This document shows, in pieces, positions 1 through 12,725 of a stretch of DNA of 12,725 nucleotides. The stretch is taken from IMG/VR virus record IMGVR_UViG_2859827302_000006. One strand, written 5' to 3'. Position numbers and translations under genes: made by a program. A model generated the notes under the pieces. It worked only from the letters and a program-made list of their open reading frames with translations. It searched no databases and was not told where the DNA came from. This DNA comes from a virus. Its lineage: Duplodnaviria; Heunggongvirae; Uroviricota; Caudoviricetes. Numbering within the stretch: the stretch's first letter is position 1; each line of letters begins with the position of its first letter.

Positions 1-1461
1 ATGAAAAAATTACTGCGTCTTTTTTTCCCGCTCTCGCTGCGGGTACGTTTTCTGTTGGCAACGGCTGCGGTAGTACTGGTGCTTTCGCTTGCCTACGGAA
101 TGGTCGCGCTGATCGGTTATAGCGTCAGTTTCGATAAAACTACGTTTCGGCTGTTACGTGGCGAGAGCAATCTGTTCTATACCCTTGCGAAGTGGGAAAA
201 CAATAAGTTGCATGTCGAGTTACCCGAAAATATCGACAAGCAAAGCCCCACCATGACGCTAATTTATGATGAGAACGGGCAGCTTTTATGGGCGCAACGT
301 GACGTGCCCTGGCTGATGAAGATGATCCAGCCTGACTGGCTGAAATCGAATGGTTTTCATGAAATTGAAGCGGATGTTAACGATACCAGCCTCTTGCTGA
401 GTGGAGATCATTCGATACAGCAACAGTTGCAGGAAGTGCGGGAAGATGATGACGACGCGGAGATGACCCACTCGGTGGCAGTAAACGTCTACCCGGCAAC
501 ATCGCGGATGCCAAAATTAACCATTGTGGTGGTGGATACCATTCCGGTGGAGCTAAAAAGTTCCTATATGGTCTGGAGCTGGTTTATCTATGTGCTCTCA
601 GCCAATCTGCTGTTAGTGATCCCGCTGCTGTGGGTCGCCGCCTGGTGGAGTTTACGCCCCATCGAAGCCCTGGCAAAAGAAGTCCGCGAACTGGAAGAAC
701 ATAACCGCGAATTGCTCAATCCAGCCACAACGCGAGAACTGACCAGTCTGGTACGAAACCTGAACCGATTGTTAAAAAGTGAACGCGAACGTTACGACAA
801 ATACCGTACGACGCTCACCGACCTGACCCATAGTCTGAAAACGCCACTGGCGGTGCTGCAAAGTACGCTGCGTTCTCTGCGTAGTGAAAAGATGAGCGTC
901 AGTGATGCTGAGCCGGTAATGCTGGAGCAAATCAGCCGCATTTCACAGCAAATTGGCTACTACCTGCATCGTGCCAGTATGCGCGGCGGGACATTGCTCA
1001 GCCGCGAGCTGCATCCGGTCGCCCCACTGCTGGACAATCTCACCTCAGCGCTGAACAAAGTGTATCAACGCAAAGGGGTCAATATCTCTCTCGATATTTC
1101 GCCAGAGATCAGCTTTGTCGGTGAGCAGAACGATTTTGTCGAGGTGATGGGCAACGTGCTGGATAATGCCTGTAAATATTGCCTCGAGTTTGTCGAAATT
1201 TCTGCAAGGCAAACCGACGAGCATCTCTATATTGTGGTCGAGGATGATGGCCCCGGTATTCCATTAAGCAAGCGAGAGGTCATTTTCGACCGTGGTCAAC
1301 GGGTTGATACTTTACGCCCTGGGCAAGGTGTAGGGCTGGCGGTAGCCCGCGAAATCACCGAGCAATATGAGGGTAAAATCGTCGCCGGAGAGAGCATGCT
1401 GGGCGGTGCGCGGATGGAGGTGATTTTTGGTCGCCAGCATTCTGCGCCGAAAGATGAATAA
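1..1461 (+). CDS. phoQ: Sensor histidine kinase PhoQ of the PhoP/PhoQ two-component system, full length (486 aa)
   Basis: Translation is recognised as enterobacterial PhoQ: two N-terminal transmembrane segments, periplasmic acidic patch EDDDDAE, HAMP region, H-box [11 protein letters not shown], and ATPase motifs DNACKY, DDGPGI, GQGVGL; ends in TAA at 1459-1461. Confidence 0.96.
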
Positions 1462-1675
1462 ATATGTCCTTTTATCACTATATCAAGACAAACCATTGAT
1501 TTAATTAAATAATCTACACTGAAAAAGTGCCAAAAATCGCAAATTGACTACACCATTAACTACACCGTTCGGTGCACCGTATGAAACAACGTGGAACAAA
1601 TAGACACAAGAAATATACAGGCGGATCATCTTTCCAGGGGGAAGCGCACCAATTCATGAGGGGCGTTAATGTCTA

Positions 1676-1945
1676 TATGGGGATCCCCACCTACCGGAAT
1701 TTTTTTCCGGTTAAACGTTAATCAGGCTGGTGGGCTTTACCTGTTCGGTAGGTGTTATGATTATCGTAATACCTTTCCCCCAATGGGGTAAAAGCATCAA
1801 CCGTAACGAAAGTCGTTATGGTTGCCACCGATACCCCAAATTTGGGTATCACGAGTAAGCCCCAAAATCTGGGTGTTACTCTTACTACCCAAACTACGGG
1901 TAGTTTCCGTAGTTTCATGGTCGAGTTGCAGATCTGCAACTCCCC
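1676..1945. other. Hairpin-dense non-coding region (perfect palindromes and tandem CCCAAA...GGGT stem-loops); candidate structured RNA or protein-binding array
   Basis: Palindromes TGGGGATCCCCA (1678-1689), CCGGAA-T5-TTCCGG (1694-1710), GATACCC-caaattt-GGGTATC (1830-1850), AGTAAG...CTTACT enclosing CCCA/TGGG (1854-1886), TACCC-aaactac-GGGTA (1886-1902), and the perfect 20-bp GAGTTGCAGATCTGCAACTC (1923-1942). The three overlapping ORFs of 60-76 aa here have no ribosome-binding site and do not look coding. Confidence 0.35.
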
Positions 1946-2077
1946 CATTAACCACAGGCGAATTTCCGCCTTCGGTCATTCCTTAATCATCTGCGTAATC
2001 ATAATGATTATTCAGCAAGCGCAATTTTGCGCTTTGCTTTAAGTTCAGCGAGTTACCGCGCCGACTTCCTCAAATTG

Positions 2078-2159
2078 AGGTTTCCGAAAATATCAACGGG
2101 TTAGGCTGGTTTCCCCGATGTTCGCCGCTGGCGAATTTCGAAAATATCAACCAGTTACC
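2078..2159. repeat. Imperfect direct repeats GGTTTCCGAAAATATCAAC / AATTTCGAAAATATCAAC, each next to a GTTACCGC motif
   Basis: Copies at 2078-2097 and 2133-2152; GTTACCGC at 2052-2059 and 2154-2161. The core GTTTCCG resembles the lambda cosB R-element core. Confidence 0.5.
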
Positions 2160-2436
2160 GCCGCAACCGCTCCGGCTTCTTCCAGTGGTACGTTATTTTT
2201 TCTTTCTCCCGATACAGTTCAACGCGGCGATTGTAGGCCAGCATTTCCAGAACGCGGATCCGTATGTCGCGCATATCAACATCATTAAGCTGGATACCAT
2301 CACGGCGCATCACCTCAGCAACAACACGCACATAATTTTCAGCGGTCACGCTGTCCGGCTGCGTGGCCTGTTCGTCATGCTGCTGGCTGATTCCGGCAAC
2401 GCGGCGGATTAATCGCAGTATTTCGGCTTCTGTCAT
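2155..2436 (-). CDS. Hypothetical protein (93 aa), last gene of the island before the non-coding terminus
   Basis: ATG at 2436 preceded by GGGGG 4-5 nt upstream; protein-like composition; the overlapping + strand ORF 2185-2412 looks like antisense noise. No recognisable motif. Confidence 0.55.
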   Translation of the reverse strand: MTEAEILRLIRRVAGISQQHDEQATQPDSVTAENYVRVVAEVMRRDGIQLNDVDMRDIRIRVLEMLAYNRRVELYREKEKITYHWKKPERLRR

Positions 2437-2470
2437 TGTGCCCCCATCGTTCTGATAGTCTGGTGTCGTC

Positions 2471-2535
2471 GGGTCCTTCCTGGAATTATGGCCCGTTACG
2501 GGGCGGCGACCTCGCGGTTTTTCGCTATTTATGAG
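2471..2535 (+). other. Lambda-type cos site (cos-1), cosN cohesive-end sequence GGGCGGCGACCT at 2501-2512, inverted relative to cos-2
   Basis: CCCGTTACGGGGCGGCGACCTCGCGGTTTTTCGCTATTTATGA matches the phage lambda cosN region and left-end leader with a one-base difference; the flank GGGTCCTTCCTGG resembles the lambda cosQ-side sequence. Confidence 0.75.
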
Positions 2536-2547
2536 CTTTTTTAGAGG

Positions 2548-2699
2548 GAGGTTGTTGTTTAATTGTTTGTCATATCCATTTGATAACTAAGTAAAAATAA
2601 AGAGCAATACAACAACCTGATAGTGTTTTTTTGATGCTAAAAATAAAAAAATGCTAATTGAATCAAATAGTTTTAAAAAAATACGTGGTTGTTGTATTG
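2548..2699. repeat. AT-rich region with three GGTTGTTGT elements (two direct, one inverted) on the cosB side of cos-1
   Basis: AGGTTGTTGTTT at 2549-2560; CAATACAACAACC at 2605-2617 is the exact reverse complement of GGTTGTTGTATTG at 2687-2699. Confidence 0.4.
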
Positions 2700-2729
2700 C
2701 GTATTTGATGGCGTAACAGAAAGTGATTT

Positions 2730-3170
2730 TTAACTTTGCTGTTCTGTAACGACTGATTGTTCCATGCTGGCACGGCGAACGCTTACGGCATGACGCCACC
2801 CAGCCAGAAAGCCAGCCATTTTATTTCGTGCCTTGCTCACATCTTCCGGTGAATAGCCGTAAATCTGCAAACCTTCATCAAATCGATGTTCTGTTTCTTC
2901 ACTGGAGTACTCGTCACGCTCAGATGAAAGCAGCCTGGCAAACATAATTTTTTCCAGCGCACTGGTTTCTACGTGATATCTGATGGCCTCAAGACGGCTT
3001 TTACCTGAAGACCAAAGCAATGTATGCCCGATGTGATAACCGCCAGACTTTCCGCGATCCGCATTAAGATACGGCATCCCCTGTTTGGTCCATGCGCGAA
3101 TAGTGGTTCTGTTAACCTTGAAATGTTCAGCTATTTCCTGCTGACTTACAAAACAAGCTTTATCAATCAT
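2730..3170 (-). CDS. Terminase small subunit homolog (lambda Nu1-like winged-HTH N-terminus); candidate packaging-redirection protein
   Basis: N-terminus QQEIAEHFKVNRTTIRAWTKQGMPYL parallels lambda Nu1 KKQLADIFGASIRTIQNWQEQGMPVL; ATG at 3170 with AAGGTA ribosome-binding site; cos-2 lies about 70 bp upstream, as in lambda cos-Nu1. At 146 aa it is shorter than Nu1 (181 aa). Confidence 0.85.
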   Translation of the reverse strand: MIDKACFVSQQEIAEHFKVNRTTIRAWTKQGMPYLNADRGKSGGYHIGHTLLWSSGKSRLEAIRYHVETSALEKIMFARLLSSERDEYSSEETEHRFDEGLQIYGYSPEDVSKARNKMAGFLAGWRHAVSVRRASMEQSVVTEQQS

Positions 3171-3240
3171 AATGTTACCTTAACCGCATGGTTAAATATT
3201 AATCAAGTGGTGGTGGTGTCACCTTCACGGAAAAACGTCA

Positions 3241-3300
3241 TAAATAGCGAAAACCCGCGAGGTCGCCGCCCCGTAACGGGTCCATATGCCGGAAAGGACC
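3241..3300 (-). other. Lambda-type cos site (cos-2) with cosQ-like flank, oriented toward the Nu1-like gene
   Basis: Minus-strand reading GGTCCTTTCCGG...CCCGTTACGGGGCGGCGACCTCGCGGGTTTTCGCTATTTATGA matches lambda cosQ/cosN/left-end sequence; cohesive-end 12-mer is the complement of 3260-3271. Confidence 0.8.
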
Positions 3301-3302
3301 CG

Positions 3303-3328
3303 TAAAAAAAGCCGGATTTCTCCGGCCT
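3303..3328 (-). terminator. Rho-independent terminator ending the capsid operon
   Basis: Minus-strand GCCGGA-GAAA-TCCGGC followed by T7, immediately after the stop of the 137-aa gene. Confidence 0.75.
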
Positions 3329-3332
3329 TGTC

Positions 3333-3746
3333 TCAGATGGTTTTCAGTATGCGCTCGATGTCGCCATCATCGCCCGGGTTTCTGCCGTCGTATGCCATGC
3401 CAGCTGAAACGGCTTGCGGGCTGTGCATGTCCATAAAGTTTTCAAAGGCTGCGGTAAGCTCCGGCGCAACCTTCTGGCGTTCCTGCTCTATGGTCATGCT
3501 AAGGATGCTTTTAGCCGTACCAACATCGATACAAGGCACGTTTGCCATTGCACGTAACAGCGGCTGATAGTCGTTATGCTCATGAAGCGCCATAATCGCA
3601 TCAGCGCGCGGCTTGTCCTGCTCTTCCAGTTTGTTGAGTTGATATACGGCCTCGTAGGTTGATAAACCTCTGTCAGCCATTGCCCGCGCTTCGGCTTTAA
3701 ATTTACTCGCCAGCGGTAGCGTCATGATGCTTTCATTCGTTGCCAT
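3333..3746 (-). CDS. Hypothetical protein (137 aa), last gene of the capsid operon
   Basis: ATG at 3746 with GGGGGA ribosome-binding site 4 nt upstream; 12 nt downstream of the D-like gene stop; protein-like composition; no recognisable motif. Confidence 0.65.
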   Translation of the reverse strand: MATNESIMTLPLASKFKAEARAMADRGLSTYEAVYQLNKLEEQDKPRADAIMALHEHNDYQPLLRAMANVPCIDVGTAKSILSMTIEQERQKVAPELTAAFENFMDMHSPQAVSAGMAYDGRNPGDDGDIERILKTI

Positions 3747-3758
3747 CGTTCCCCCTGC

Positions 3759-4094
3759 TTATCGGGCCAGCGGCTGAACGGATACGCCAGAACCCGCAAA
3801 GGCGGCGCATTTTTTCGCATCGGTGTCGACGCTCTCGGGCCAGTTCACGGCGGCGATATTAAAGATCCCCGTCTTGTAGCACTGTGCTGATTTCTGCTTT
3901 GACGTGTCCACGGGGTACGAAGTCAGATAAACAGCCTTTCCGGACGCCTGACCATCCCACGGCTTAAACTCGCCATTGTCCGCCAGCATCAGCGGGGTAA
4001 ATTCCTGAATGACGCCAGCATCAGCGGCAAAATGTACCAGCGTCGTGGATACCTGCTGACTGCCTGCAAATAACTCAATGTATGGAGTGTTCAT
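3759..4094 (-). CDS. Head decoration protein homolog (lambda gpD-like), 111 aa
   Basis: Size matches gpD (110 aa); C-terminal YKTGIFNIAAVNWPESVDTDAKKCAAFAGSGVSV parallels gpD [35 protein letters not shown]; ATG at 4094 with GGGGGA ribosome-binding site. Confidence 0.7.
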   Translation of the reverse strand: MNTPYIELFAGSQQVSTTLVHFAADAGVIQEFTPLMLADNGEFKPWDGQASGKAVYLTSYPVDTSKQKSAQCYKTGIFNIAAVNWPESVDTDAKKCAAFAGSGVSVQPLAR

Positions 4095-4105
4095 AGAATC
4101 CCCCG

Positions 4106-5161
4106 TTAACCAATTTTGACGGTAACAAATTTGCGAATGTCTGCCGGCACCGGCTGCGGTGCGCTGTGCGTCTGCACGTACTCAATCGCCGGATCGCCGT
4201 CCTCAATCCAGTTTTTCGGGTAGTACATGTTTTGCGTTGCGCCCGTTCTTACCGCTTCCTGATCCATAATCGCACCATAAGCAACCAGCCCTTTATTGTT
4301 GGTGTTGCCCAAGACCAGCAAATCAGGCTCAAGGAAATGTTTTTCGGTGCCGTCGCTGTCGGCGTATTTGCCGGAATAGACGATAAGGGCAATATCGCCC
4401 AGATAGCCTTTAAAGCTCACCACTTCGCCCAGGTTTTTACAGGCCAGTTCTGCGGCGGATTCTGAACCACGGGAAAGATCGTACAGTTCGCGGAATTTTT
4501 TAAAGCTGCGTAACGTGCGCCATACCTCAGCGCCCATAATCATGACGTTTGCGGGGCAATTGCCCTGATCCGCATAAAGCTCGATATCATAGATTGGATC
4601 GTGGGTTTCTTTGTCCTGCTCGGACCATTTACGGCCTTTGGCCTGCTCTATGATGTTGTTTTCCGGCATCTTCCAGTCGATTTCATAGCGTTCTATGCCT
4701 TCGCCCTCAATGATGTTTTTTCCGGTCGTTACCGCATTTACCGCCAGCCATTCAACACGCGCTTTAATAGCGTTTACCTGGCGGCGCATGTTGCCAGTAA
4801 TCAGGCGCATACGGCGATAGGTTGGGTCGTTAAGCTGTGCCGGATCTTCTCCAGCCATGCGCATGATGGTTTTTGTTGGATCGATTTCGTGCTTTGGCTT
4901 CATGTAGCCAGGTTTAATCGTGCTGGTTTCGTACCCTTTATCGCGCTGTACCTGGCTACCAACCATAGGCGAGCAAAACGCTGACATAGTGACTTCTTCG
5001 GTGTCCAGGTTATCCAGCATGATGTTTTGGGTGTTGAATGTCGCTACTTTCGGGAAAAACAGCGTGGTAAACAGCGGACTAAATTTAAATTCCGCAATAT
5101 CCCCGCGATTCAGGTACGCAAAAAGCTGGTGAGTGTTAAGTGCCGTTGCTTTGCCTGCCAT
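4106..5161 (-). CDS. Major capsid protein homolog (lambda gpE family), 351 aa
   Basis: Collinear motif matches to lambda gpE along the length: KPGYMKPKHEIDP, RRMRLITGNMRR, SFKGYLGDIALIVYSGKY, FLEPDLLVLGNTNNKGL, YPKNWIEDGDPA; ATG at 5161 with GGGGGTG ribosome-binding site. All + strand ORFs inside it are antisense. Confidence 0.9.
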   Translation of the reverse strand: MAGKATALNTHQLFAYLNRGDIAEFKFSPLFTTLFFPKVATFNTQNIMLDNLDTEEVTMSAFCSPMVGSQVQRDKGYETSTIKPGYMKPKHEIDPTKTIMRMAGEDPAQLNDPTYRRMRLITGNMRRQVNAIKARVEWLAVNAVTTGKNIIEGEGIERYEIDWKMPENNIIEQAKGRKWSEQDKETHDPIYDIELYADQGNCPANVMIMGAEVWRTLRSFKKFRELYDLSRGSESAAELACKNLGEVVSFKGYLGDIALIVYSGKYADSDGTEKHFLEPDLLVLGNTNNKGLVAYGAIMDQEAVRTGATQNMYYPKNWIEDGDPAIEYVQTHSAPQPVPADIRKFVTVKIG

Positions 5162-5367
5162 TATTCACCCCCATAATTTTTATGCATCCCAAGCGCCGCA
5201 AGTAAATAAGAGCGTACAAGTGAACCTATCGACGGCTCCGGCGTCATCAGCGGATCCAGTCCAGCCGCCACGCCAGCCTCATAGTTTTTTTTGTGGCGCT
5301 GCTTGAGCACCTCCACGATTTCGGGGCTTATGTACACCGAAACACCGCCTTTTTTCTCTTCAGCCAT
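5161..5367 (-). CDS. Hypothetical small protein (68 aa), first gene of the capsid operon
   Basis: ATG at 5367 with GAGGAA ribosome-binding site; its stop overlaps the capsid gene start (TAATG). Confidence 0.55.
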   Translation of the reverse strand: MAEEKKGGVSVYISPEIVEVLKQRHKKNYEAGVAAGLDPLMTPEPSIGSLVRSYLLAALGMHKNYGGE

Positions 5368-5402
5368 AGTAAGAAATTCCTCTTCGACTTAAAAAATCAT
5401 AA

Positions 5403-5452
5403 CTGGATGTTCATCCAGCTCTGATTATAATCATGATTGCATTTTGTGCAAT
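5403..5452 (-). promoter_or_regulatory. Putative capsid-operon promoter (TTGCAC-16 nt-TATAAT, minus strand) with a perfect 16-bp palindrome just downstream
   Basis: The -10 TATAAT is the complement of 5424-5429 and the -35 TTGCAC is the complement of 5446-5451; CTGGATGTTCATCCAG at 5403-5418 is perfectly palindromic. Confidence 0.4.
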
Positions 5453-5528
5453 GATATTGAGTTGTGTTGCAAATTATGAAATGATTATCCCGATCATGTG
5501 TGTCAGTGCACCAAAAAGCCTCATATGC

Positions 5529-5570
5529 AAAAGCCCGATAAGCCACCTCTGACCTTATCGGGCTTTTTTA
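5529..5570 (+). terminator. Strong hairpin plus T-tract, an intrinsic terminator for + strand transcription
   Basis: GCCCGATAAG-11 nt loop-CTTATCGGGC (10-bp perfect stem, 5533-5563) followed by TTTTTT; only AAAA precedes it, so it is weaker on the minus strand. Confidence 0.5.
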
Positions 5571-5694
5571 TCTGCCTGCAAAGATGTCGAACAAAAATTA
5601 ACCATAACCATCATCTTTTTTGCATCAAAACAATTAAAAACAATAAATTACGCTCATGATGATGATGACGATAAAATCACAAAAATGCGCTTTT

Positions 5695-5743
5695 TTCCGC
5701 GCCTCCCGCCCCGTGTTCAGGCCCACCCCGCCAGGAGGCCCCG
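5695..5743 (-). other. Degenerate cos-like sequence (cos-3) next to a copy of the cos-2 terminator
   Basis: Minus-strand ACGGGGCCTCCTGGCGG...ACGGGGCGGGAGGCGCGG aligns to cos-2 ACGGGTCCTTTCCGGCA...ACGGGGCGGCGACCTCGCGG, but the cohesive-end core is disrupted. Confidence 0.45.
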
Positions 5744-5767
5744 TAAAAAAGCCGGATTGCTCCGGCT
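5744..5767 (-). terminator. Rho-independent terminator ending the replication operon after the SSB gene
   Basis: Minus-strand GCCGGA-GCAA-TCCGGC followed by T6, 16 nt after the SSB stop; near-identical to the terminator at 3303-3328. Confidence 0.7.
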
Positions 5768-5782
5768 TCTGTCACTCGTCGC

Positions 5783-6205
5783 TTAAAACGGTATGTTATC
5801 CCCGTACGGATCATCATTCCCCGCCTGTTGTTTTGCCCTGTTCAGCGCGTCAGTAGCCTGGCCCTGTTGACCTTTTTTGCCGCCCAGTCGCGCCGTTCGC
5901 GCACTGATTACACTGTCTGCGATAACCTGCCAGCCCTGCCGCGTTTCTCCGTTCTGCCCAGTCCACTGGCTGATCTGCATGTTACCCGCCACGCTCAGGA
6001 GTTCACCCTTGCGGTGCCTTTCCAGTGCTTCGGCCTGTCTGCCAAATGCCAGGACGGATAACCACATCGTCGCCGTTCCGTCATCTGCCTGGCTGCACGG
6101 AAGGGGGACCGCCATACGTGCCAGCGTCATTGGTGTGCCCTTGCTGGTCTGTTTTACCTGCGGGTCGTCCACCAGCCGCCCGTAAGCTGCTATCTGTGCT
6201 GTCAT
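5783..6205 (-). CDS. ssb: Single-stranded DNA-binding protein homolog (140 aa)
   Basis: OB-fold-like N-terminal region, Gly/Gln-rich linker and acidic C-terminal tail ending DDPYGDNIPF (compare E. coli SSB DDDIPF); strong ribosome-binding site GGAGAGGTGG; ATGA overlap with the upstream gene. Confidence 0.8.
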   Translation of the reverse strand: MTAQIAAYGRLVDDPQVKQTSKGTPMTLARMAVPLPCSQADDGTATMWLSVLAFGRQAEALERHRKGELLSVAGNMQISQWTGQNGETRQGWQVIADSVISARTARLGGKKGQQGQATDALNRAKQQAGNDDPYGDNIPF

Positions 6206-6483
6206 GATTCCACCTCTCCGGTTTTAACGTTGATGGTTGTTACCTGTTCCGCTTCGGCAATCTCCCGTTCTGTCAGCGTGGCAAAGTTTGCCGCCGCCGT
6301 GGTCATGAATGCGCTTATCAGGTCGGGATGTTCCTTCGCGTATCCTTCCCGCGTGTGGCGGTCTATCGTTCTGATTGCCACCTTTAAGGTGTGCTCAGTC
6401 ATGTCTAACGCTTTATATTTTGGCTCTGTTCTGTCTCTGCGTTTTTGGGTCATTTCTCGCAACCTCTCACTTTTTCGCCTCAC
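6202..6483 (-). CDS. Hypothetical small protein; true start probably the internal ATG at 6453 (about 83 aa)
   Basis: Stop overlaps the SSB start (ATGA); the ORF 5-prime end overlaps the iterons, and the in-frame ATG at 6453 has a GAGAGG ribosome-binding site. Confidence 0.5.
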   Translation of the reverse strand: MRRKSERLREMTQKRRDRTEPKYKALDMTEHTLKVAIRTIDRHTREGYAKEHPDLISAFMTTAAANFATLTEREIAEAEQVTTINVKTGEVES

Positions 6484-6657
6484 TTTTTCAAGCGTCTCAC
6501 TTCGTCGCAGTTGGGATTTTCGGTTTTTCTATGTGTGTGTTTCATAAGTATTTTTTTACCCCTCACTTTTGAGGATGTATACAGGTCGAAAAGTGAGGGA
6601 GAGCGGGCTAATTTTGGCCCTCTTTCTATCCCCCTCGCTTTTGCTCCTCACTTTTAT
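6463..6657. repeat. Iteron array, putative replication origin: seven copies of CTCACTTTT (two variants, one inverted) around an AT-rich spacer
   Basis: Copies at 6465-6475, 6478-6488, 6495-6504 (variant), 6561-6570, 6589-6599 (inverted), 6634-6642 (variant) and 6646-6655; AT-rich stretch 6510-6560; lies directly 3-prime of the Rep ATPase gene. Confidence 0.6.
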
Positions 6658-8054
6658 AGCGGCGCTACATCATCCCCATCGATACGAATAACCCCATCTT
6701 TTTCCAGCTTGTACAGCCAGCGCCGGAAGTTTTTCATTTCATACCCCAGCTTTTTCATGTCATCACGTAACAGCGGGATCGTGCACTTGTCGCCGTTCTG
6801 TGTGCGTGAACGGATGCACCCCCATAGCGCGGTATGGTTTTCCGTCTTGTTCCCTGCCTCCTCGATGCGCTCCAGTTCAACAGGAGGGCGCGGATCATCC
6901 ACCACCACCAGCGACGTGATTAATTCACCGTCAGCGTCGGTAAAAAGCTCCACCACGCGTAAGTCATATGCGGCTTCTTTGAGTTCCTCCGCGTCCTTCA
7001 TTTTGGTGCATGAGATAACCAGCGCTTCGCTTCCTGCGTCCTCCCTGCGTATCCGGTATTCAGCATCCAGCGAAGCACGAAATGCACTGGAACCGCGCGC
7101 GCCTTTCGTCTCATCCTTGCCGGAATGGTGAACCACCAGCACCGTGGCCCCTGTGCGTCGTTTCAGTTCGTCACAACCACGGATAAACGCCCCCATATCA
7201 CGGGAATCATTTTCATCATTCCCACCAAAGCAACGCGCCAGCGTATCCAGAATAATCATGCGTACAGGTTTACCCGTTTCCCGCTCCACCTGACGGGCAG
7301 CGATAACCATTTCATCAACATCAAGCGGGGCAGCCGGAAAGATGGGGCGGTTTACCAGATACAGATTTTTCACCTGCTCATCGTGCACAACCTCCCAGGC
7401 TTTTACACGACGCGGAACACCTATACCGCCTTCACCAACCACATAGAGAACCGCACCATGTGCAACCCTGCGGCCTCCCCACTGGCGACCAGTGGCAACA
7501 TGGCACGCCCACGATCCGGCAAGGAATGATTTATAGGACCCGCTAGCTCCGTATATGCTGCATAGCGATACCGCCGGAATAATCCCCTTAACCACGTAAT
7601 CCAGTTGCGTGTCGTATCCGGTAGATCCAACGCTCATCGGTAGCGTGGTTTTTCGCTGGTGGTTTTTTTCTTCCGCCGGCTCTTTCCCGCGCACCCGTTC
7701 CAGGTATTCGCGCCAGTTCTCCCGCATATGGCTGTGCATCCCTTCGGGGTAATAATTCGCATCAGTTACACCCGCCGCCGCCAGCTTGTGCGCAATGGCA
7801 TTAATATTTGATGGCCTGATGTGGCCTGCCTTGTACAGCCGGACACAATAGCGCCCCTCGTCGATGATTCTCAGGTCTGCCAGTTCATCCAGTTGATCAT
7901 CAGCCAGCACAACGGGAGGCACATTATCGCCAGCCAGTCGCCCGTCCTGTTCCTGCCACTGTTTCGCATGTGCCCAGGCATCACTACCCGCAAAAATAAT
8001 GACTTCGGTCATCTTGTCGTAAGGCTGTTTTTTTAAGTTCGGTGCGCTTTTCAT
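6654..8054 (-). CDS. RepA-like RecA-fold (AAA_25-type) replication ATPase, putative initiator-helicase (466 aa)
   Basis: Walker A GASGSYKS, Walker B-like MIILDTLARCFGG, motif VLVVHHSGKD and a basic C-terminal region; ATG at 8054 with AGGGG ribosome-binding site and ATGA overlap with the upstream gene. The N-terminal 150 aa have no recognisable primase motifs. Confidence 0.85.
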   Translation of the reverse strand: MKSAPNLKKQPYDKMTEVIIFAGSDAWAHAKQWQEQDGRLAGDNVPPVVLADDQLDELADLRIIDEGRYCVRLYKAGHIRPSNINAIAHKLAAAGVTDANYYPEGMHSHMRENWREYLERVRGKEPAEEKNHQRKTTLPMSVGSTGYDTQLDYVVKGIIPAVSLCSIYGASGSYKSFLAGSWACHVATGRQWGGRRVAHGAVLYVVGEGGIGVPRRVKAWEVVHDEQVKNLYLVNRPIFPAAPLDVDEMVIAARQVERETGKPVRMIILDTLARCFGGNDENDSRDMGAFIRGCDELKRRTGATVLVVHHSGKDETKGARGSSAFRASLDAEYRIRREDAGSEALVISCTKMKDAEELKEAAYDLRVVELFTDADGELITSLVVVDDPRPPVELERIEEAGNKTENHTALWGCIRSRTQNGDKCTIPLLRDDMKKLGYEMKNFRRWLYKLEKDGVIRIDGDDVAPL

Positions 8055-8350
8055 TTCTTGCCCCTGAATCCGTTAACCATGGTTTTCAGCTTCTGGATGT
8101 TTGCCCGTGCCCTGGCGTTGCTGGTGGGCACGTTATGCGGCGCGGTCTGTACCAGAGAAAAATCACGCCGGAACTGATAAACAGGCATCACGCAATCATA
8201 TTCGTAACCTTCACGGCGGTAGGTTACACGCCGTTCTTCCACGCCCTTAATCATTACCGTGCCGCCGTACTGGTCGCGGTAAATATCACCGCGCGTAAAT
8301 TTAGGGTGAGTGTTGCCACTGGCAGTTAAGCCAGAATATTTAAGTTTCAT
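8051..8350 (-). CDS. Hypothetical protein (99 aa)
   Basis: GGAGAA ribosome-binding site before the ATG at 8350; stop overlaps the Rep start (ATGA). Confidence 0.55.
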   Translation of the reverse strand: MKLKYSGLTASGNTHPKFTRGDIYRDQYGGTVMIKGVEERRVTYRREGYEYDCVMPVYQFRRDFSLVQTAPHNVPTSNARARANIQKLKTMVNGFRGKK

Positions 8351-8355
8351 TATTT

Positions 8356-8589
8356 TTATTCTCCGGTGTGCTGTTCTTTATATCTGTCGTGCAATAGATC
8401 TATTTCTTGCAGTTCCATTATTACAGGCTCAAGAAGCGTTATTAATGCCGTGGCAATTCTTGATTTTTGTTTGTCGCGTTCATTGTCGCCAAGTGTTTCA
8501 AGCCATATGCGCAATATTTCCAGCATGTTTTCACTGTGAGAAAGTGCAAGAAATGCGCGGTCTATTGTTTCGTGGTAAATATCACGCAT
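8356..8589 (-). CDS. Hypothetical protein (77 aa)
   Basis: ATG at 8589 with GAGGA upstream; start overlaps the stop of the 196-aa gene by 8 nt. Confidence 0.5.
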   Translation of the reverse strand: MRDIYHETIDRAFLALSHSENMLEILRIWLETLGDNERDKQKSRIATALITLLEPVIMELQEIDLLHDRYKEQHTGE

Positions 8590-9172
8590 GGCTTACATCC
8601 TCAGGAAATTTTCTTCTGTAACGCGCCTCTGCCACATATTCCGCATAATCGGCGGCGATATTCAGTACATCAAGCCCCGTTGATTTATATTCTCTCGTGG
8701 AAAGTAAGAAAAAAGCCGCTCTAATAAGTTCTGGCATTGACGAAAGCGCATCAGCCGCATCATCAGGAACGCCGGAAAATTCCTGTTTCAGGGAATTAAA
8801 ACGATCATCACGCATGTTTACCCCCTGAATGACCTGATAACCGCAACTGGTCAGCAACTCGATAAATTCCGGCAGTGTGCCGAAACAGCAATCATCACGC
8901 AGCCGTTCGCAGGATACCTCGACGCCGTTTTCGTAGTGACTCACCATACATCCGGTAAAATGCAGATCATCATCGTGATGGCTCGTTGACGGCTTAATCA
9001 GTCGCGCACGTTCCGCCAGTTCCAGCAATGCTTCAACGCTTCCGGCAATTGCACCATCCGGCAGGTGATAATTACGCACTATGCGCCCGTTCTCCACATT
9101 GACCAGCAACTGCCCGGTAAATTTCTCATCAAACTGAATGCTGTTAAGGTCAGAAATTGACAGATTATGCAT
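8582..9172 (-). CDS. Hypothetical protein (196 aa; start taken at the internal ATG 9172 rather than the ORF-track start 9190)
   Basis: AGGAGG sits 6 nt upstream of the ATG at 9172; protein-like composition, no recognisable motif. Confidence 0.65.
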   Translation of the reverse strand: MHNLSISDLNSIQFDEKFTGQLLVNVENGRIVRNYHLPDGAIAGSVEALLELAERARLIKPSTSHHDDDLHFTGCMVSHYENGVEVSCERLRDDCCFGTLPEFIELLTSCGYQVIQGVNMRDDRFNSLKQEFSGVPDDAADALSSMPELIRAAFFLLSTREYKSTGLDVLNIAADYAEYVAEARYRRKFPEDVSHA

Positions 9173-9386
9173 GGTGCACCTCCTGCACATCAGCCATGAT
9201 AATTTTTCCGGCCTTATCCAGTGCCTGATCGGCTTTTAGCTGCACAAATGCTAAATGGAAGATGCATTCTGATTCTCTGGCTGCGTGTTTATGCGCCCTG
9301 TCAGCAATAACAGAAATATCAATAAGCGCGTGCATCAGCGTAGTGAGCGCGGCGGCGGCTGCGTCCGGTGTGGTTTTATTGCACAT
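9165..9386 (-). CDS. Hypothetical small protein (73 aa; start at internal ATG 9386)
   Basis: GGAGGGG ribosome-binding site 4-5 nt upstream of the ATG at 9386; Ala-rich, helical-looking; short overlaps with both neighbours. Confidence 0.5.
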   Translation of the reverse strand: MCNKTTPDAAAAALTTLMHALIDISVIADRAHKHAARESECIFHLAFVQLKADQALDKAGKIIMADVQEVHHA

Positions 9387-9606
9387 GTACCCCTCCGCAT
9401 TTTTTTTCGTTAGAAATAAGCGTTCTTCTTTCCTGTTCATCGCTCAGGAATACGCAGACCTCACCGCTAAGGCGTTTAAGTAAGCCGATGATTGCCCCTG
9501 ATTCGCTGTCGGTCATCATGCTAGGGTAATCCTCTGCCAGTGCGCAAATAACTTCGATTTGGTGGGCGCGTTCTGCTGCCTGTTGTAGTGTGATTTCCTG
9601 GCTCAT
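9376..9606 (-). CDS. Hypothetical small protein (76 aa)
   Basis: ATG at 9606 overlaps the preceding stop (ATGA); GGGGG upstream. Confidence 0.5.
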   Translation of the reverse strand: MSQEITLQQAAERAHQIEVICALAEDYPSMMTDSESGAIIGLLKRLSGEVCVFLSDEQERRTLISNEKKCGGVHVQ

Positions 9607-9803
9607 AAGCCTACCCCCTGACGAATACGGGCAGCAAATACCATCACGCAGCCAGCCGGAGATTGCTGGCGTGCTTCCTGTTCGCTGGTGGCCTCAATGG
9701 TAATCACGCGCGGTTGTGCCGTGCTCAGGGCGATAAAACGCCAGATGTATTTATTCAGGTTGTGCGAGTCCCGCCCTTTCGGGTGTGTGGTATGATTTCT
9801 CAT
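9603..9803 (-). CDS. Hypothetical small protein (66 aa), first gene of the main leftward operon; it is the C-terminal part of the 428-codon stop-free frame
   Basis: In-frame ATG at 9803 with GAGG ribosome-binding site, about 90 nt downstream of the predicted minus-strand promoter. Confidence 0.4.
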   Translation of the reverse strand: MRNHTTHPKGRDSHNLNKYIWRFIALSTAQPRVITIEATSEQEARQQSPAGCVMVFAARIRQGVGL

Positions 9804-9900
9804 AGCTACCTCGATACTGTTGCTATCGTTGGTGGTTAGAAGCCCCGTTACTGCTCCTACAGTGCGGGGTTTCGTCGTTTCTGTGCCTTTCATCAATAAG

Positions 9901-9981
9901 GTGTAAGACACAATGTAAAACAATGGTGTCTTACACGTCAACCCTTCAAAATATTTTTTTTTCGTGTATATTGTCTTACAC
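9901..9981. promoter_or_regulatory. Divergent promoter/operator switch between the RHH gene (+) and the main operon (-)
   Basis: Inverted repeat GTGTAAGACAC (9901-9911) / GTGTCTTACAC (9926-9936) plus half-site GTCTTACAC (9973-9981); + promoter TTCAAA (9945-9950)-16 nt-TATATT (9967-9972); minus promoter TTGACG (complement of 9936-9941)-17 nt-TTACAT (complement of 9913-9918). Confidence 0.55.
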
Positions 9982-10002
9982 CAAAAACATGAGGGGTTAA
10001 AC

Positions 10003-10182
10003 ATGGCAACGGGTCCAAAGAATGCAAAATCACAATCTGTAACTGCACGTATTGCCCATGAAATTATTGAAGGCATGGAGAACGTGAAAGAAGAAGGCGA
10101 AAGCACGGGACAGTTTATAAACGCAGCCATGCGCGGCGAAATCAAACGCCGCCAGCGCCGCAAGGCCAAAGAGCAGGAGTAA
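10003..10182 (+). CDS. Ribbon-helix-helix (CopG/Arc/MetJ-like) DNA-binding protein, about 59 aa; candidate repressor of the switch
   Basis: ATG at 10003 with GAGGGG ribosome-binding site; the pattern SVTARIAHEIIEGMENVKEEGESTGQFINAAMRGEIKRR fits a beta-strand plus two helices; the ORF-track start at 9964 (GTG) lies inside the promoter. Confidence 0.7.
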   Translation: MATGPKNAKSQSVTARIAHEIIEGMENVKEEGESTGQFINAAMRGEIKRRQRRKAKEQE

Positions 10183-10224
10183 CCATCACCAGCGCCGTGG
10201 TGTGAGTAACTACGGCGCATTGCT

Positions 10225-10413
10225 ATGCAGGACAACACAATGACCGATAAAGAATTGACCAAAACATTATCACCGGCACGGAAAAGACGGCGCAGAAAGA
10301 TAGAGCATGAATCAGAAAGATTCGCGCCATGTGCTTTTGCCCTTGAGCAATTCCTTAAAGAGTACAGGGAAAAGCGCTCATTGCAGGTATGGCAACGAAC
10401 TGAACCAGACTGA
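10225..10413 (+). CDS. Possible small Arg/Lys-rich protein co-transcribed with the RHH gene (likely start ATG 10240)
   Basis: Weak AGGA ribosome-binding site; basic stretch ARKRRRRK; followed by a + strand terminator. Could instead be untranslated. Confidence 0.35.
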   Translation: MQDNTMTDKELTKTLSPARKRRRRKIEHESERFAPCAFALEQFLKEYREKRSLQVWQRTEPD

Positions 10414-10490
10414 TTGCATTGCCCACCAGCCGCAAATGTGGCATTATTGGCAATGCTCATGCGTTGGGGATAACGTGTAGCTTGTGTCGA

Positions 10491-10520
10491 GGGGCCACCG
10501 TAGCGGGTGGCCTTTGTTTT
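10491..10520 (+). terminator. Rho-independent terminator of the RHH transcription unit
   Basis: GGCCACC-GTAGCG-GGTGGCC (10493-10512) followed by TTTGTTTT; a second weaker hairpin plus T-run lies at about 10613-10646. Confidence 0.6.
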
Positions 10521-10526
10521 GCCCGT

Positions 10527-10889
10527 TATTCGGCAATTGTGGCGCTTCTCCACATGGTTGATATAATCCCACTGCTCAGATTCATTTTTTGCGCAGTAGG
10601 TTAATTGTTCACAAAGGCGCTCCGGCAACGGGGCGCTTTTTGTTTTTATTAGTTTGTAGAAACCTGACTCAGAGATAATGCTCATATTCTGATTGCCGTC
10701 AGGGGTGTAAGTTAAATTTACTCCCTTTTTATCATCAAACATCTGCAACGCTCTGGCGTTAACAATATTGGTTTCACTCCCGCCAGTAAGGCCGGAAATA
10801 ACCGGAATAATTTCGGCAAAATTTTGCAGATTCTGTTTTTCAGGACGAACGAAGCCCCGCCCTTGTTCGGGAGAATATCCAGTATTCAT
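10527..10889 (-). pseudogene. Possible decayed gene with a Bro-N-like antirepressor N-terminus; the frame runs on without a stop to 9603
   Basis: The first 95 or so codons look protein-like and include ISESGFYKLIKTKSAPLPE, reminiscent of the Bro-N motif; downstream the frame is antisense to the RHH operon and rich in C/S/R; weak ribosome-binding site. Confidence 0.3.
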
Positions 10890-10941
10890 GGTTAGATCTC
10901 TGTATTAGTGGATGGGTGGCGGCTGTGTGCCGCCAGCCTGA

Positions 10942-11130
10942 TTAGTGAACTGCCTCGCAGCTGTCCTTCCATGCCAGAACTTCGGATAAAGACCAGCCAA
11001 CGGAACGACCGCCCAGCTTACGCCGTGATGGGAATTGTCCGGCTTTTTCCAGGCGGTACCGACATGAGCGGCTCAGGCCTGTAAGTTGCTGACATTCTTT
11101 TTCACGTATAAAGCGATCTGTGCTTAACAC
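10942..11130 (-). CDS. alpA: AlpA-family (prophage CP4-57 / P4 Vis-like) HTH transcriptional regulator, 62 aa
   Basis: FIREKECQQLTGLSRSCRYRLEKAGQFPSRRKLGGRSVGWSLSEVLAW fits the AlpA/MerR-like HTH pattern; GTG start at 11130 with GGGGGA ribosome-binding site; directly downstream of int. Confidence 0.8.
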   Translation of the reverse strand: MLSTDRFIREKECQQLTGLSRSCRYRLEKAGQFPSRRKLGGRSVGWSLSEVLAWKDSCEAVH

Positions 11131-11164
11131 AATTCCCCCTTTGTTGTTTCTTAAAGAGTCATTG

Positions 11165-11215
11165 GGTGGATTATTGGGTTGGGTTGTGTCGGATTGTGTC
11201 AGGGTGTTTGTGGAA
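11165..11215. repeat. Repeated TTGTGTC / GGGTTG elements upstream of alpA
   Basis: GGGTTGGGTTGTGTCGGATTGTGTCAGGGTGTTTGTGG, with GTTGTGTC at 11183-11190 and ATTGTGTC at 11193-11200. Confidence 0.4.
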
Positions 11216-11404
11216 TGGCAAACACTGGCGGCGGTCGTTTTACAGAAGCAGGGGGAATGAGAATAAAAACTCTTTTAATTCATTATGATGCAAAGGCATA
11301 AAATTTTACTTTTACGCCTTTTTTACATATTTTTAAGAGTGATTCGCCAGTGTATAAAAAAACAGTACACCTATAAAAATCAAATGGTTATTACGATGGC
11401 TGAT

Positions 11405-11470
11405 TTTTAACCCGTTGTTCCATTTTGTTCCTTGTTGTTCGTCGTTGTGTCTCGTTGTTTCACGTTGTCC
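11405..11470. repeat. Six tandem 10-bp-phased GTTGT repeats between the int stop and alpA
   Basis: cccGTTGTTc / cattTTGTTc / cttGTTGTTc / gtcGTTGTGt / ctcGTTGTTt / cacGTTGTCc at 11411-11470, one per helical turn. Confidence 0.5.
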
Positions 11471-11495
11471 GCATCCTGAAAAATCGCAAAAAAAA

Positions 11496-12725
11496 TTATA
11501 TTTCTCTGGCTATTGGCAATGTGGTTACGTTTTCATGTGTTCCCGCCAGTATCCCTAACCGCTCCGTCCACATATCCAGCGCGTCACGTTTCGCATCCAG
11601 ATAACGGGAATGGTTATAGACTCGTTGCATCCCTGGCATCTGATGACCTGTAAGCTGCTCCACGACGTGAGGATCCACGCCTAAATCGTTCAGCATCGTT
11701 GTAAAGGTGCGCCGGATGTCATGCAGTGACCAGTGAGGGTGTTTTAGCCTCCTGTGCGCTAATCTGCCGTACTGCGACACGCTTGTTTCCTGTTTCACTT
11801 CCCCCAGCAATAAGCCCGTGTGCCTGTTCTGCTCCACCAGCTGCGTGACGAACGGCAGTATTGCTTCCGGTATGGGCCGGAATATTGCCACCTTCGTTTT
11901 GCTGTGTTCTTTCGGCACGGTCCAGAGCATTTCGGTAAAATCCCACTCGCTGATCTCCGATAACCTCAGTTCTACCGTCCGGCATCCGAAAACAATCAGG
12001 AGGCGGATTAGTGCGACGTAGTAAGGGGAAAATATTTTTTTGTCCAGTGCCTGCAATAATTCGCCAAGTTCTTTGGTGCTTAAGACACGCTCGCTTATAT
12101 CCGGTTTTTTCCCAACGTCCGCCACACTCATATCATCAAGAACGTTGCTGATTGCATAGCGCCGCCTCCGGCAGAACTTAAGCGCCTGTTTGCACGTCTG
12201 TAGCAAGAATCCGGCAGTAACAGGCGTTCGCTTTGCCACCTGGTCAAAACAGGCCAGCCAGTGCCGTAGCTCGCATTTATCCAGCGGCATAGCACCAATG
12301 TGCTGTATTACGTGATTATTAAGGCGCTTTTTCAGGGCGGCATAATCCACGCGGTTTTCCTTTACGTAAGACTCAAGCCAGTAGGTAAGCGCATCGCCAA
12401 CCGTTACGGGCTTTAACGCTTTCTGTACGGTGTAATTCATCTCATGACGTGGATTTTTCCCCTCAGCAAGCCAAGCGCGACACTGTGCCGCTTTTTCCCT
12501 GGCAGCTTTCAGACTCAGATCAGGATAATTTCCCAGCTTAATCCGTTCCGGTCGTGCTCCCCTTCCCGTTCCGGCCCTGTAGGTGAAATACCAGGTTAAA
12601 AGGCCGCTGGTTGAATGCCTGACGCTCAGGTTTCCACCGTCATTAAGAAAGGCTGTTTTTTGGGCGGGTGTGCCGTTGATTTTCCTTAGCTGTGTATCAC
12701 TCAGTTTGTTAAGTGCTCTGCGCAT
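11496..12725 (-). CDS. int: Tyrosine site-specific integrase, P4-type (409 aa); start codon at the window edge
   Basis: N-terminal arm-binding region with the LNDGGNLSV motif (compare P4 Int LADGGGLYL); C-terminal catalytic signature with R in GCRTVELR, HxxR in LHDIRRTF and the Tyr region GHQMPGMQRVYNHSRYL. Confidence 0.92.
   Translation of the reverse strand: MRRALNKLSDTQLRKINGTPAQKTAFLNDGGNLSVRHSTSGLLTWYFTYRAGTGRGARPERIKLGNYPDLSLKAAREKAAQCRAWLAEGKNPRHEMNYTVQKALKPVTVGDALTYWLESYVKENRVDYAALKKRLNNHVIQHIGAMPLDKCELRHWLACFDQVAKRTPVTAGFLLQTCKQALKFCRRRRYAISNVLDDMSVADVGKKPDISERVLSTKELGELLQALDKKIFSPYYVALIRLLIVFGCRTVELRLSEISEWDFTEMLWTVPKEHSKTKVAIFRPIPEAILPFVTQLVEQNRHTGLLLGEVKQETSVSQYGRLAHRRLKHPHWSLHDIRRTFTTMLNDLGVDPHVVEQLTGHQMPGMQRVYNHSRYLDAKRDALDMWTERLGILAGTHENVTTLPIAREI

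Follow-up and report, generated by a model that had tools for sequence, protein, structure and literature searches.

A helically phased repeat array between int and alpA, a putative AlpA operator in an Escherichia coli phage-inducible chromosomal island

We analyzed the region between int and alpA in the viral record IMGVR_UViG_2859827302_000006, a stretch of 12,725 nucleotides that is referred to below as the window. Behind phoQ at its left end, the window consists of an island of ~11 kb with its genes on the minus strand. An earlier sequence-only reading had called int and alpA, and both calls were correct. The island occupies the roxA-phoQ integration site, which it shares with EcCICFT073, the prototypic phage-inducible chromosomal island (PICI) of E. 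coli, and its AlpA is identical to EcCICFT073 AlpA (WP_000953274.1). The int-alpA query region had a 100% match in E. coli 2017C-4173W12, between phoQ and roxA, in a record whose Int (WP_000085269.1) and AlpA have the same accessions as in EcCICFT073. From the int ATG to the alpA end, the window and CFT073 showed 4 differences in 1800 nt, only one of which is intergenic. Our subject is an array of short, helically phased repeats that follows int, together with the elements that connect it to alpA and to the attachment (att) arms of the island.

The array begins 25-27 nt past the int stop codon (TAA, 11496-11498). The sequence-only reading had described six consecutive 10-bp units with a GTTGT core immediately after this stop, which held up on inspection: on the plus strand, GTTGT starts at 11414, 11434, 11444, 11454 and 11464 and TTTGT at 11424, giving six units at exactly 10-bp spacing with TTGT cores at 11415, 11425, 11435, 11445, 11455 and 11465. 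On the int/alpA coding strand, the units read gaACAACg. Tandem Repeats Finder reported a period of 10 at 11414-11468. The window contains a single chain of six ACAA[ACT] matches spaced exactly 10 bp apart, and the longest such chain in 2000 first-order Markov simulations of the window was 3; the array is highly non-random. It also has the form expected of an operator, namely at least three direct repeats in a single orientation, one helical turn (10-11 bp) apart.

We then asked how this array is kept among relatives, which came from five integration sites (roxA, abgR, ilvL-yifB, tqsA and cspD-clpS) in complete E. coli genomes and from 80 further loci in IMG/VR; a scan of the genome collection with Int gave 1 locus, and a protein search with AlpA gave 19 proteins. 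A full int-alpA intergenic region of the array type was present in 76 loci, corresponding to 55 distinct sequences, and all 55 contain at least five units in register. Therefore, the comparison was favorable to the array, and the lack of conservation among related islands that had been named beforehand as grounds for rejecting it did not occur. In a matrix of the 51 distinct units, ACAA carries 1.1-2.0 bits per position and the G at position -3 carries 1.0 bit, with 0.2-0.4 bits at each of the remaining five positions; an alignment of four sequences likewise shows constant ACAA cores and variable spacers. No ACAAY array was found in the fis-type and int-iolg-alpA islands (L013-L018 and L090-L101).

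The array motif recurs in the att arms. Comparison with the empty phoQ-roxA site placed the att core AAATATGTCC at the left island junction, directly after the phoQ stop, and the other junction a short way beyond the window, 171 bp upstream of the int start codon (ATG). Each arm contains a co-oriented core-proximal module made of two tandem 12-mers of the form (A/G)TT(A/G)ACTACACC, followed by GNTCGNTGCAC and then by three to four ACAA units at 10-bp spacing. In the P′ arm, within the window, the 12-mers are ATTGACTACACC and ATTAACTACACC; the co-oriented copy in the P arm lies upstream of int, outside the window (L001, 14822-14845). We built a weight matrix from the array units only and scanned phased triplets over the ~11-kb L001 island on both strands, with 200 shuffles as the null (median 11.9, 95th percentile 18.7, maximum 25.4). 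The array scored 34.7 and 26.8. Both att arms, at 31.8 for P′ and 31.6 for P, exceeded the null maximum and were the only other strong phased clusters in the island, followed by a second cluster near alpA (17.6); all other positions scored at most 11.2. A 14-mer, ACAACGTGRAACAA, occurs in the array and in each of the arms. The array and the P arm open with ACAACGTGAAACAA and the P′ arm with ACAACGTGGAACAA, and the arm units are inverted relative to the array. Recurrence of the motif in the att arms, adjoining the 12-mers, is what would be expected of an operator read by a directionality factor.

Two kinds of site thus stand side by side in the arms, and the relatives allowed us to compare each of them with the island proteins. 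The 12-mer sequence tracks the Int N-terminal domain across five Int variants, and the ACAA units do not. Islands with the Int motif RHSTSGL carry the 12-mer GGTGTAGTTAAT, those with KYLTSGK carry GGTGTAGTCACT, those with KVTKSGV carry GGTGTAGTCATT, those with KVSKIGV carry GGTGCAGTCAGT or GTGTAGTCAGT, and those with IKHSKGG carry GTGTGGTCAGT. The tandem 12-mers in both arms also have the same layout as the features annotated as 'attP arm sequence repeat' in P4 (L104, 3942-3965 and 4151-4174). Therefore, because of both this P4-like layout and the agreement with the Int N-terminal domain, we regard the 12-mers as putative Int arm-type sites; a similar doubled motif was earlier proposed as the Int arm sites of helper-embedded PICIs.

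The phased units appear to follow AlpA instead. In the cspD-clpS islands (L010, L011 and L021), the Int N-terminal domain is nearly identical to that of the window but the AlpA allele is different, with the recognition helix CRTTRYELEKKG in place of the SRSCRYRLEKAG of the window type. These islands are without the ACAAC array, and their arms carry TTGTTCG three to four times at 10-bp spacing, that is, CGAACAA in place of GnnACAA. L021 has GTTCG pairs with exact 10-bp spacing only in its att arms and upstream of alpA (GTTCG at 566/576, 639/649 and 14733/14743/14753; CGAAC at 2246/2256). LSR(S/T)C alleles of AlpA pair with GnnACAA and RTT alleles with CGAACAA, a correspondence that covers few independent lineages and sites physically linked to alpA. 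All loci with an LSR(S/T)C-type AlpA and enough upstream sequence carry the array, and ACAAY was found upstream of alpA in none of the 12 loci with an RTT-type AlpA, in the upstream sequence available (up to 470 bp). The arm motif equals the alpA-upstream motif within each island type, and the motif variant appears to track AlpA and not Int. This comparison of motif and allele favors AlpA as the reader of the units and is supportive, although not conclusive.

Other elements were seen at these positions in the relatives without the array. In the cspD-clpS islands, AATATC repeated three times at 10-bp spacing replaces the ACAAC array after int, with two more copies in addition (L021, 2018-2043, 2079 and 2315); the related sequence GAAAATATCAAC is repeated near the att/cos end of the window (2078-2157 and 2261-2280). 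In RTT-type islands with the int-iolg-alpA layout, a hairpin directly precedes the alpA start and holds the Shine-Dalgarno sequence in its 3′ arm (L092, ~2520-2560; L100, ~2240-2290; L099, ~2490-2535; L013, 9960-10000); a T run follows it in some, and repeats of the GTGATATCAC type lie just upstream. This would be a different mode of gating alpA.

The island encodes a small protein with a predicted excisionase winged-helix fold, as an operator of this kind would call for. The AlphaFold2 model of AlpA (pLDDT 87.5) comprises a helix-turn-helix, a beta wing and a C-terminal helix. Its best structural match in Foldseek was the GIsul2 excisionase (8C3T; TM 0.83, root-mean-square deviation 1.1 Å) and the second best was RdfS, and Pukovnik Xis, BldC and TorI were also listed. 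AlpA is therefore predicted to be an excisionase-type winged-helix protein. TorI shares 26% identity with AlpA and falls below the PF05930 threshold.

Published experiments on EcCICFT073 place the array within DNA that responds to AlpA. AlpA expressed from pBAD activates a PalpA-lacZ fusion in DH5alpha, without the island Int (PMC6092414). We mapped the primers of this fusion plasmid, pJP2038, to window positions 11528 and 11073, so its insert (11073-11528) spans the int-alpA intergenic region with the whole array and extends 57 nt into alpA. Induction of lambda or phi80 raises alpA expression from pJP1290 independently of SOS (PMC6092414), and the insert of pJP1290 has the same upstream end, at window position 11528. 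In EcCICFT073, deletion of alpA abolishes transfer, AlpA overexpression sets off int-dependent excision and replication, and the helper-phage inducer had not been identified as of 2018 (PMC6092414). EcCIMP1 behaves similarly, and excisionase cross-talk between co-resident elements was reported there. Our literature search found no published description of the repeats, and in the literature searched neither the cis-elements of PalpA nor the recognition sequence of AlpA is described.

Near alpA, the sequence-only reading had pointed to a second cluster of related repeats just upstream of the ribosome-binding site. This cluster is real: GGGTTGTGTC and GGATTGTGTC at 11181-11200 form, when read on the coding strand, a pair of ACAAY units with 10-bp spacing, and degenerate CCAAT repeats come next, at 11161-11180. 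Taken alone, it is statistically borderline, with its triplet score just below the 95th percentile of the null, and it is kept in both diverged island types, the O157-type counterparts of its units being GGAACAATAC and GACACAATAA. The units overlap the -10 and start region of the predicted alpA promoter, and one consensus-grade unit includes the -10 hexamer. All 55 distinct intergenic regions retain TTGCCA and (C/A)ACAAT with a 17-bp spacer between them, even across a 10-11-bp indel, where the -10 is AACAAT. This promoter is the sole promoter-like site of the int-alpA intergenic region; inspection by eye and a promoter scan gave nothing convincing nearer the array.

The DNA that separates the array from the promoter has 25-32% G+C. 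It contains a match to the consensus of integration host factor (IHF), 20-30 bp from the array and at a fixed distance from it in 53 of the 55 regions. Across the nine variants of this site, the consensus positions are constant and the changes are confined to the unspecified NNNN bases; the pattern has 6 matches in the whole window, counting both strands. The P′ arm has a second match, AATCAATGGTTTG, located between core and 12-mers, that resembles the site beside the array. In 47 of the 55 distinct regions, the last array unit and the -10 unit (window 11194-11418) stand 20, 21 or 22 helical turns apart, to within 1 bp. This figure reflects very few independent indels and depends on how units are called, and it is no more than suggestive of a helical phase constraint between array and promoter.

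The same stretch carries a conserved hairpin on the sense transcript (RNA fold -17.6 kcal/mol, z = -4.7). Among relatives, its fourth pair is G.U, A-U or G-C, a pattern that fits an RNA structure of the sense strand only. No intrinsic terminator was found directly after int, and the hairpin probably marks the end of the int transcript, as a (weak) terminator or as an insulator that shields alpA from int read-through. Upstream of the predicted -35, ATTCCCCCT (11250-11258, minus strand) is perfectly complementary to the alpA Shine-Dalgarno region AGGGGGAAT (11132-11140), so int read-through transcripts could mask the alpA ribosome-binding site; this pairing is weaker or missing in O157-type intergenic regions. 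The positions of these elements are collected in Table 1, together with those of the other features of the island.

Table 1. Features of the int-alpA region, the P′ att arm and the remainder of the island (window coordinates)
Feature	Position	Strand	Description
Array 1	11411-11470	-	six 10-bp units; coding-strand consensus GnaACAAyg (TTGTnnC on the plus strand)
Cluster 2	11161-11200	-	two consensus-grade units GACACAATCC, GACACAACCC (11200-11181), then degenerate CCAAT repeats
Predicted alpA promoter	11193-11221	-	-35 TTGCCA (11221-11216), 17-bp spacer, extended -10 TGaCACAAT (hexamer 11198-11193)
IHF consensus match	11378-11390	+	AATCAAATGGTTA (pattern WATCARNNNNTTR); between array and promoter
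Hairpin	11292-11321	-	AAAGGCGUAAAA-N6-UUUUAUGCCUUU, 12-bp stem; inverted repeat between array and alpA promoter
att core	1460-1469	+	AAATATGTCC
Tandem 12-mers	1543-1566	+	ATTGACTACACC, ATTAACTACACC; putative Int arm-type sites
P′ arm units	1583-1612	+	ACAA at 1586, 1596, 1606, exact 10-bp spacing, each with G at -3
Second IHF consensus match	1489-1501	-	AATCAATGGTTTG; P′ arm
int	11496-12725	-	P4-type tyrosine integrase; Arm-DNA-bind_3 N-terminal domain and Phage_integrase domain
alpA	10942-11130	-	62 amino acids, GTG start, PF05930 E = 3e-18
alpA Shine-Dalgarno sequence	11135-11140	-	AGGGGG
RepA-type helicase gene	6654-8054		
SSB gene	5783-6205		
Major capsid protein gene	4106-5161		lambda-E-type
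Head decoration protein gene	3759-4094		
Rpp homologue (RppC)	2730-3170	-	E = 5.7e-31 to PDB 6HLK
cosN, copy 1	2501-2512	+	GGGCGGCGACCT; exact, lambda-type
cosN, copy 2	3260-3271	-	GGGCGGCGACCT; exact, lambda-type
17-bp repeats	6471-6487, 6554-6570, 6639-6655		TTTTNCNCCTCACTTTT
phoQ	1-1461	+	precedes the island

Overall, we provide a putative reading of the array. On balance, we consider it probable that the units form a head-to-tail operator of AlpA, accompanied by a conserved IHF consensus site, for the autoregulation of alpA. Among the binders proposed in the sequence-only reading, an AlpA/Xis-like protein is favored because the motif recurs in the att arms, because its variant tracks the AlpA allele, and because the array lies inside an AlpA-responsive fragment of an island that encodes a predicted excisionase fold. 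The arm-type integrase sites proposed there fared worse, as the array lies ~1.4 kb from the core and it is the 12-mers that track Int. The same reading had suggested that excision and alpA expression may be coupled at this place. Since the same motif stands at the att arms and upstream of alpA, presumably the same protein acts at both, and such coupling is plausible; nothing suggested recombination at the array itself.

In the mechanism that we propose, the array would be the upstream half of the alpA regulatory region. AlpA monomers would load cooperatively on the GnnACAA units, which are phased at 10 bp, and form a short, DNA-bending nucleoprotein filament. The IHF site 20-30 bp downstream may fold this filament back over ~200 bp of AT-rich DNA towards the promoter, where it would communicate with the two units that overlap the -10 and start region. 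Positive autoregulation of alpA is the net outcome that has been measured on this fragment of EcCICFT073, and through it a small, helper-triggered rise in AlpA could lead to full induction. At the att arms, AlpA on three to four units beside the Int-bound 12-mers would direct excision, and one motif and one protein could in this way link excision to the alpA feedback loop. The repeats, their conservation and their copies at the att arms, the correspondence of motif and AlpA allele, the predicted excisionase fold and the overlap with the AlpA-responsive fragment are observed; AlpA binding, DNA bending, looping, a part for IHF, and activation or repression at any given set of units are inferred.

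Several observations weigh against this reading. AlpA overexpression left a Pint-lacZ fusion unchanged (PMC6092414), and this fusion (L020, 9623-10469) spans the whole P arm including its phased units; we take the result as mild evidence against AlpA binding at the P arm, unless AlpA binds there with no effect on int transcription. The array lies ~190-250 bp upstream of the predicted -35. Furthermore, two units over the -10 occupy a position that is normally repressive, yet the net effect of AlpA is activation; when AlpA is abundant, these units may exert negative feedback. The pairing of motif variants with AlpA alleles covers few independent lineages, because array, alpA and int are tightly linked and the islands are related. 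Islands with an RTT-type AlpA have other elements upstream of alpA and no long array, so the long array is no general requirement for AlpA function. Finally, all five TorI sites of KplE1 lie on attL and repress intS, whereas the PICI units stand on both arms.

The units could instead be extra arm-type sites for the N-terminal domain of Int, through which Int, made constitutively, would silence alpA in the resting island or be stored beside its own gene. We consider this unlikely, even though the same units stand in both att arms, Int has an Arm-DNA-bind_3 domain, and every island with the array has an Int of this family. Repression would fit with units placed over the -10 and start region, no repressor of Gram-negative PICIs is known (PMC6092414), and the IntS of KplE1 represses its own promoter through arm sites. 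However, the 12-mers already have the P4-type layout of arm repeats and track the Int N-terminal domain, and the base at -3 changes from G to C between islands in which this domain is nearly identical. Two islands that share the domain (L010 and L021) are without the array altogether, and the array is found past int, at ~1.4 kb from the att core on that side, and not ~100-200 bp from a core as arm-type sites are.

It is more doubtful still that the array is a dock for the helper-phage inducer, for example an excisionase-like protein, or for a host regulator that binds direct repeats, and not for AlpA. The GTTGTGT and TGTAGTC cores resemble the lambda attP stretches ATGTTGTGTTTT and ATGTAGTCTGTT, which we take to be the Xis sites X1 and X2, respectively; this likeness extends over only 6-7 bp. 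The cross-talk of excisionases seen with EcCIMP1 would suit such a dock, as would the SOS-independent induction of alpA by lambda and phi80 from the EcCICFT073 reporter that contains the array (PMC6092414). However, AlpA alone activates this fragment, the motif variant tracks the AlpA allele of the island itself, and the units also stand in the att arms of the island, where a factor encoded by the island would be expected.

The phasing might also be a matter of DNA shape, with an intrinsically curved or wrappable segment that draws nucleoid proteins (for example H-NS, Fis or IHF) and so tunes the AT-rich region of the alpA promoter; we rate this as slightly less probable again. A 10-bp period does set A/T-rich cores on one face of the helix, the neighboring 130 bp have 25-32% G+C, and the conserved IHF consensus lies beside the array. 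However, conservation resides in a specific tetranucleotide and the base at -3 and not in A-tracts, an extended 14-mer is common to the array and the att arms, and the motif changes with the AlpA allele.

We also considered a scheme that combines parts of the above, in which the array, the IHF site and the -10 units form a nucleoprotein switch resembling an att arm, tripped directly by the helper phage; its inducer would be an excisionase-like phage protein that reads the Xis-like TTGT units and seeds an AlpA filament at the alpA promoter and at the arms. We regard this scheme as improbable; were it true, induction of the satellite would be wired to the excision step of its helper.

Least of all do we expect the repeats to act as RNA in the 3′ untranslated region of int, for example as an A-rich stretch bound by an RNA chaperone, with consequences for int stability or for read-through into alpA. 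With no terminator between the int stop and the array, and the first hairpin ~175 nt downstream of that stop, the array is probably co-transcribed with int; however, an exact period of 10 nt is that of the DNA helical turn, the units are inverted in both att arms, and no secondary structure is associated with the array.

Several other functions were rejected. A cos site is accounted for elsewhere, by the exact cosN copies, which lie far from the array and next to the Rpp homologue, and the GC-rich stretch at 11226-11238 resembles cosN only loosely and is not conserved. A replication origin was dismissed in view of the other iterons beside the helicase gene and of the identical array in EcCICFT073, which has a primase-type replication gene. 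Q-like antitermination, as with Pseudomonas aeruginosa AlpA, involves a protein of other architecture, longer than 140 amino acids, with a ring-forming N-terminal segment and a C-terminal helix-turn-helix that binds DNA through residues 128-142, and it acts with an element between -35 and -10 and a -10-like pause site; in contrast, PICI AlpA has 62 amino acids and is a winged helix only. In a candidate LexA box at 11347-11366 (CTGT-N8-ACAC), the CAG half is not conserved, and induction is SOS-independent (PMC6092414).

As a whole, the island (window 1460-12725) is a mosaic relative of EcCICFT073 (L020, NC_004431.1 1377681-1389209). Identity to EcCICFT073 is 94-97% for the int-alpA segment and the packaging end, and the replication gene differs, being a RepA-type helicase gene in the window and a primase gene in CFT073. 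The two cosN copies have opposite orientations, and one of them lies ~90 bp upstream of the RppC homologue, in agreement with the two cos sites reported for EcCICFT073. The three 17-bp repeats, ~84 bp apart and directly downstream of the RepA helicase gene, are likely candidates for replication-origin iterons. A 428-codon open reading frame at 9603-10889 on the minus strand matches no family and is unlikely to be a gene; at this place in the 2017C-4173W12 record and in related islands, RefSeq annotates small genes only, for an Icd-like protein, hypothetical proteins and, on the other strand, a YlcI/YnfO-family protein.

AlpA is the master activator of these islands, and its promoter is the one that helper phages induce. 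The array, the IHF consensus, the promoter, the -10 units and the arm units provide testable elements for PICI induction in the prototype EcCICFT073, which is the best-studied PICI of E. coli, and the base at -3 (G or C) is predicted to set the specificity of AlpA alleles. If our reading holds, AlpA would rank with Apl, Cox, Vis and TorI among the dual-purpose directionality factors, and the coordination of excision with AlpA autoinduction would be explained; the gain would be specific rather than conceptual.

Recombination directionality factors are known to load head-to-tail on tandem repeats one helical turn apart (PMC7498355, PMC2951348). Apl of coliphage 186 binds five direct repeats at att and seven at pR-pL, at 10-11-bp spacing, cooperatively and with bending (PMC7498355). 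The likeness lies in one small protein with two kinds of site, which in the window type are three to four units per att arm and six plus two upstream of alpA. However, Apl represses both of its promoters from sites between them, the promoters being face to face, whereas AlpA has been measured to activate, on balance, its own promoter, and most of the units here lie ~200 bp upstream; in sequence, Apl is an outlier and does not belong to PF05930.

TorI of KplE1 (CPS-53) recognizes GTTCG, GATCG and GTCCG (PMC2951348), and in the KplE1 sequence we read GTTCG, GTTCG and GATCG at exact 10-bp spacing beside the intS promoter. This motif and spacing are nearly those of the RTT-type PICI arms (TTGTTCG three times at 10 bp). 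IntS has the same Arm-DNA-bind_3 N-terminal domain as the Int of the window, and TorI is a winged-helix directionality factor that regulates transcription as well as recombination; the literature examined, however, reports no separate array upstream of torI.

Vis has been described as the P4 homologue of PICI AlpA (PMC6092414). The attP of P4 has tandem 12-mers in both arms, in the same layout as the 12-mers of the island, and (G/T/A)TCCG motifs at roughly 10-bp spacing between the 12-mers and the core. In the work of Cali et al. of 2004, Vis is said to bind two boxes between int and the core, to bend DNA and to regulate late promoters. In contrast to alpA, vis is not adjacent to int, there is no array after int in P4, and the motif sequences are different; moreover, Vis is reported to lower int expression, whereas AlpA has no effect on Pint in EcCICFT073.

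Lambda Xis also binds as head-to-tail winged-helix monomers, on X1-X1.5-X2, 10 bp apart and beside an Int arm site, and the PICI units are similar to TGTTGTG and TGTAGTC, the cores in lambda attP. However, Xis has three sites on one arm only, the sources note no promoter array, and the two proteins are unrelated in sequence. RdfS of ICEMlSym R7A binds attP and promoter regions, including its own, and oligomerizes along DNA (PMC11963761); unlike what we propose for AlpA, no clear sequence motif was found for it and it attenuates its own promoter, and an extra N-terminal helix drives its polymerization in the absence of DNA. By analogy, the array parallels the sites of Apl, TorI, Vis and Cox, and while the principle is well known, the array would be a new and specific example of it.

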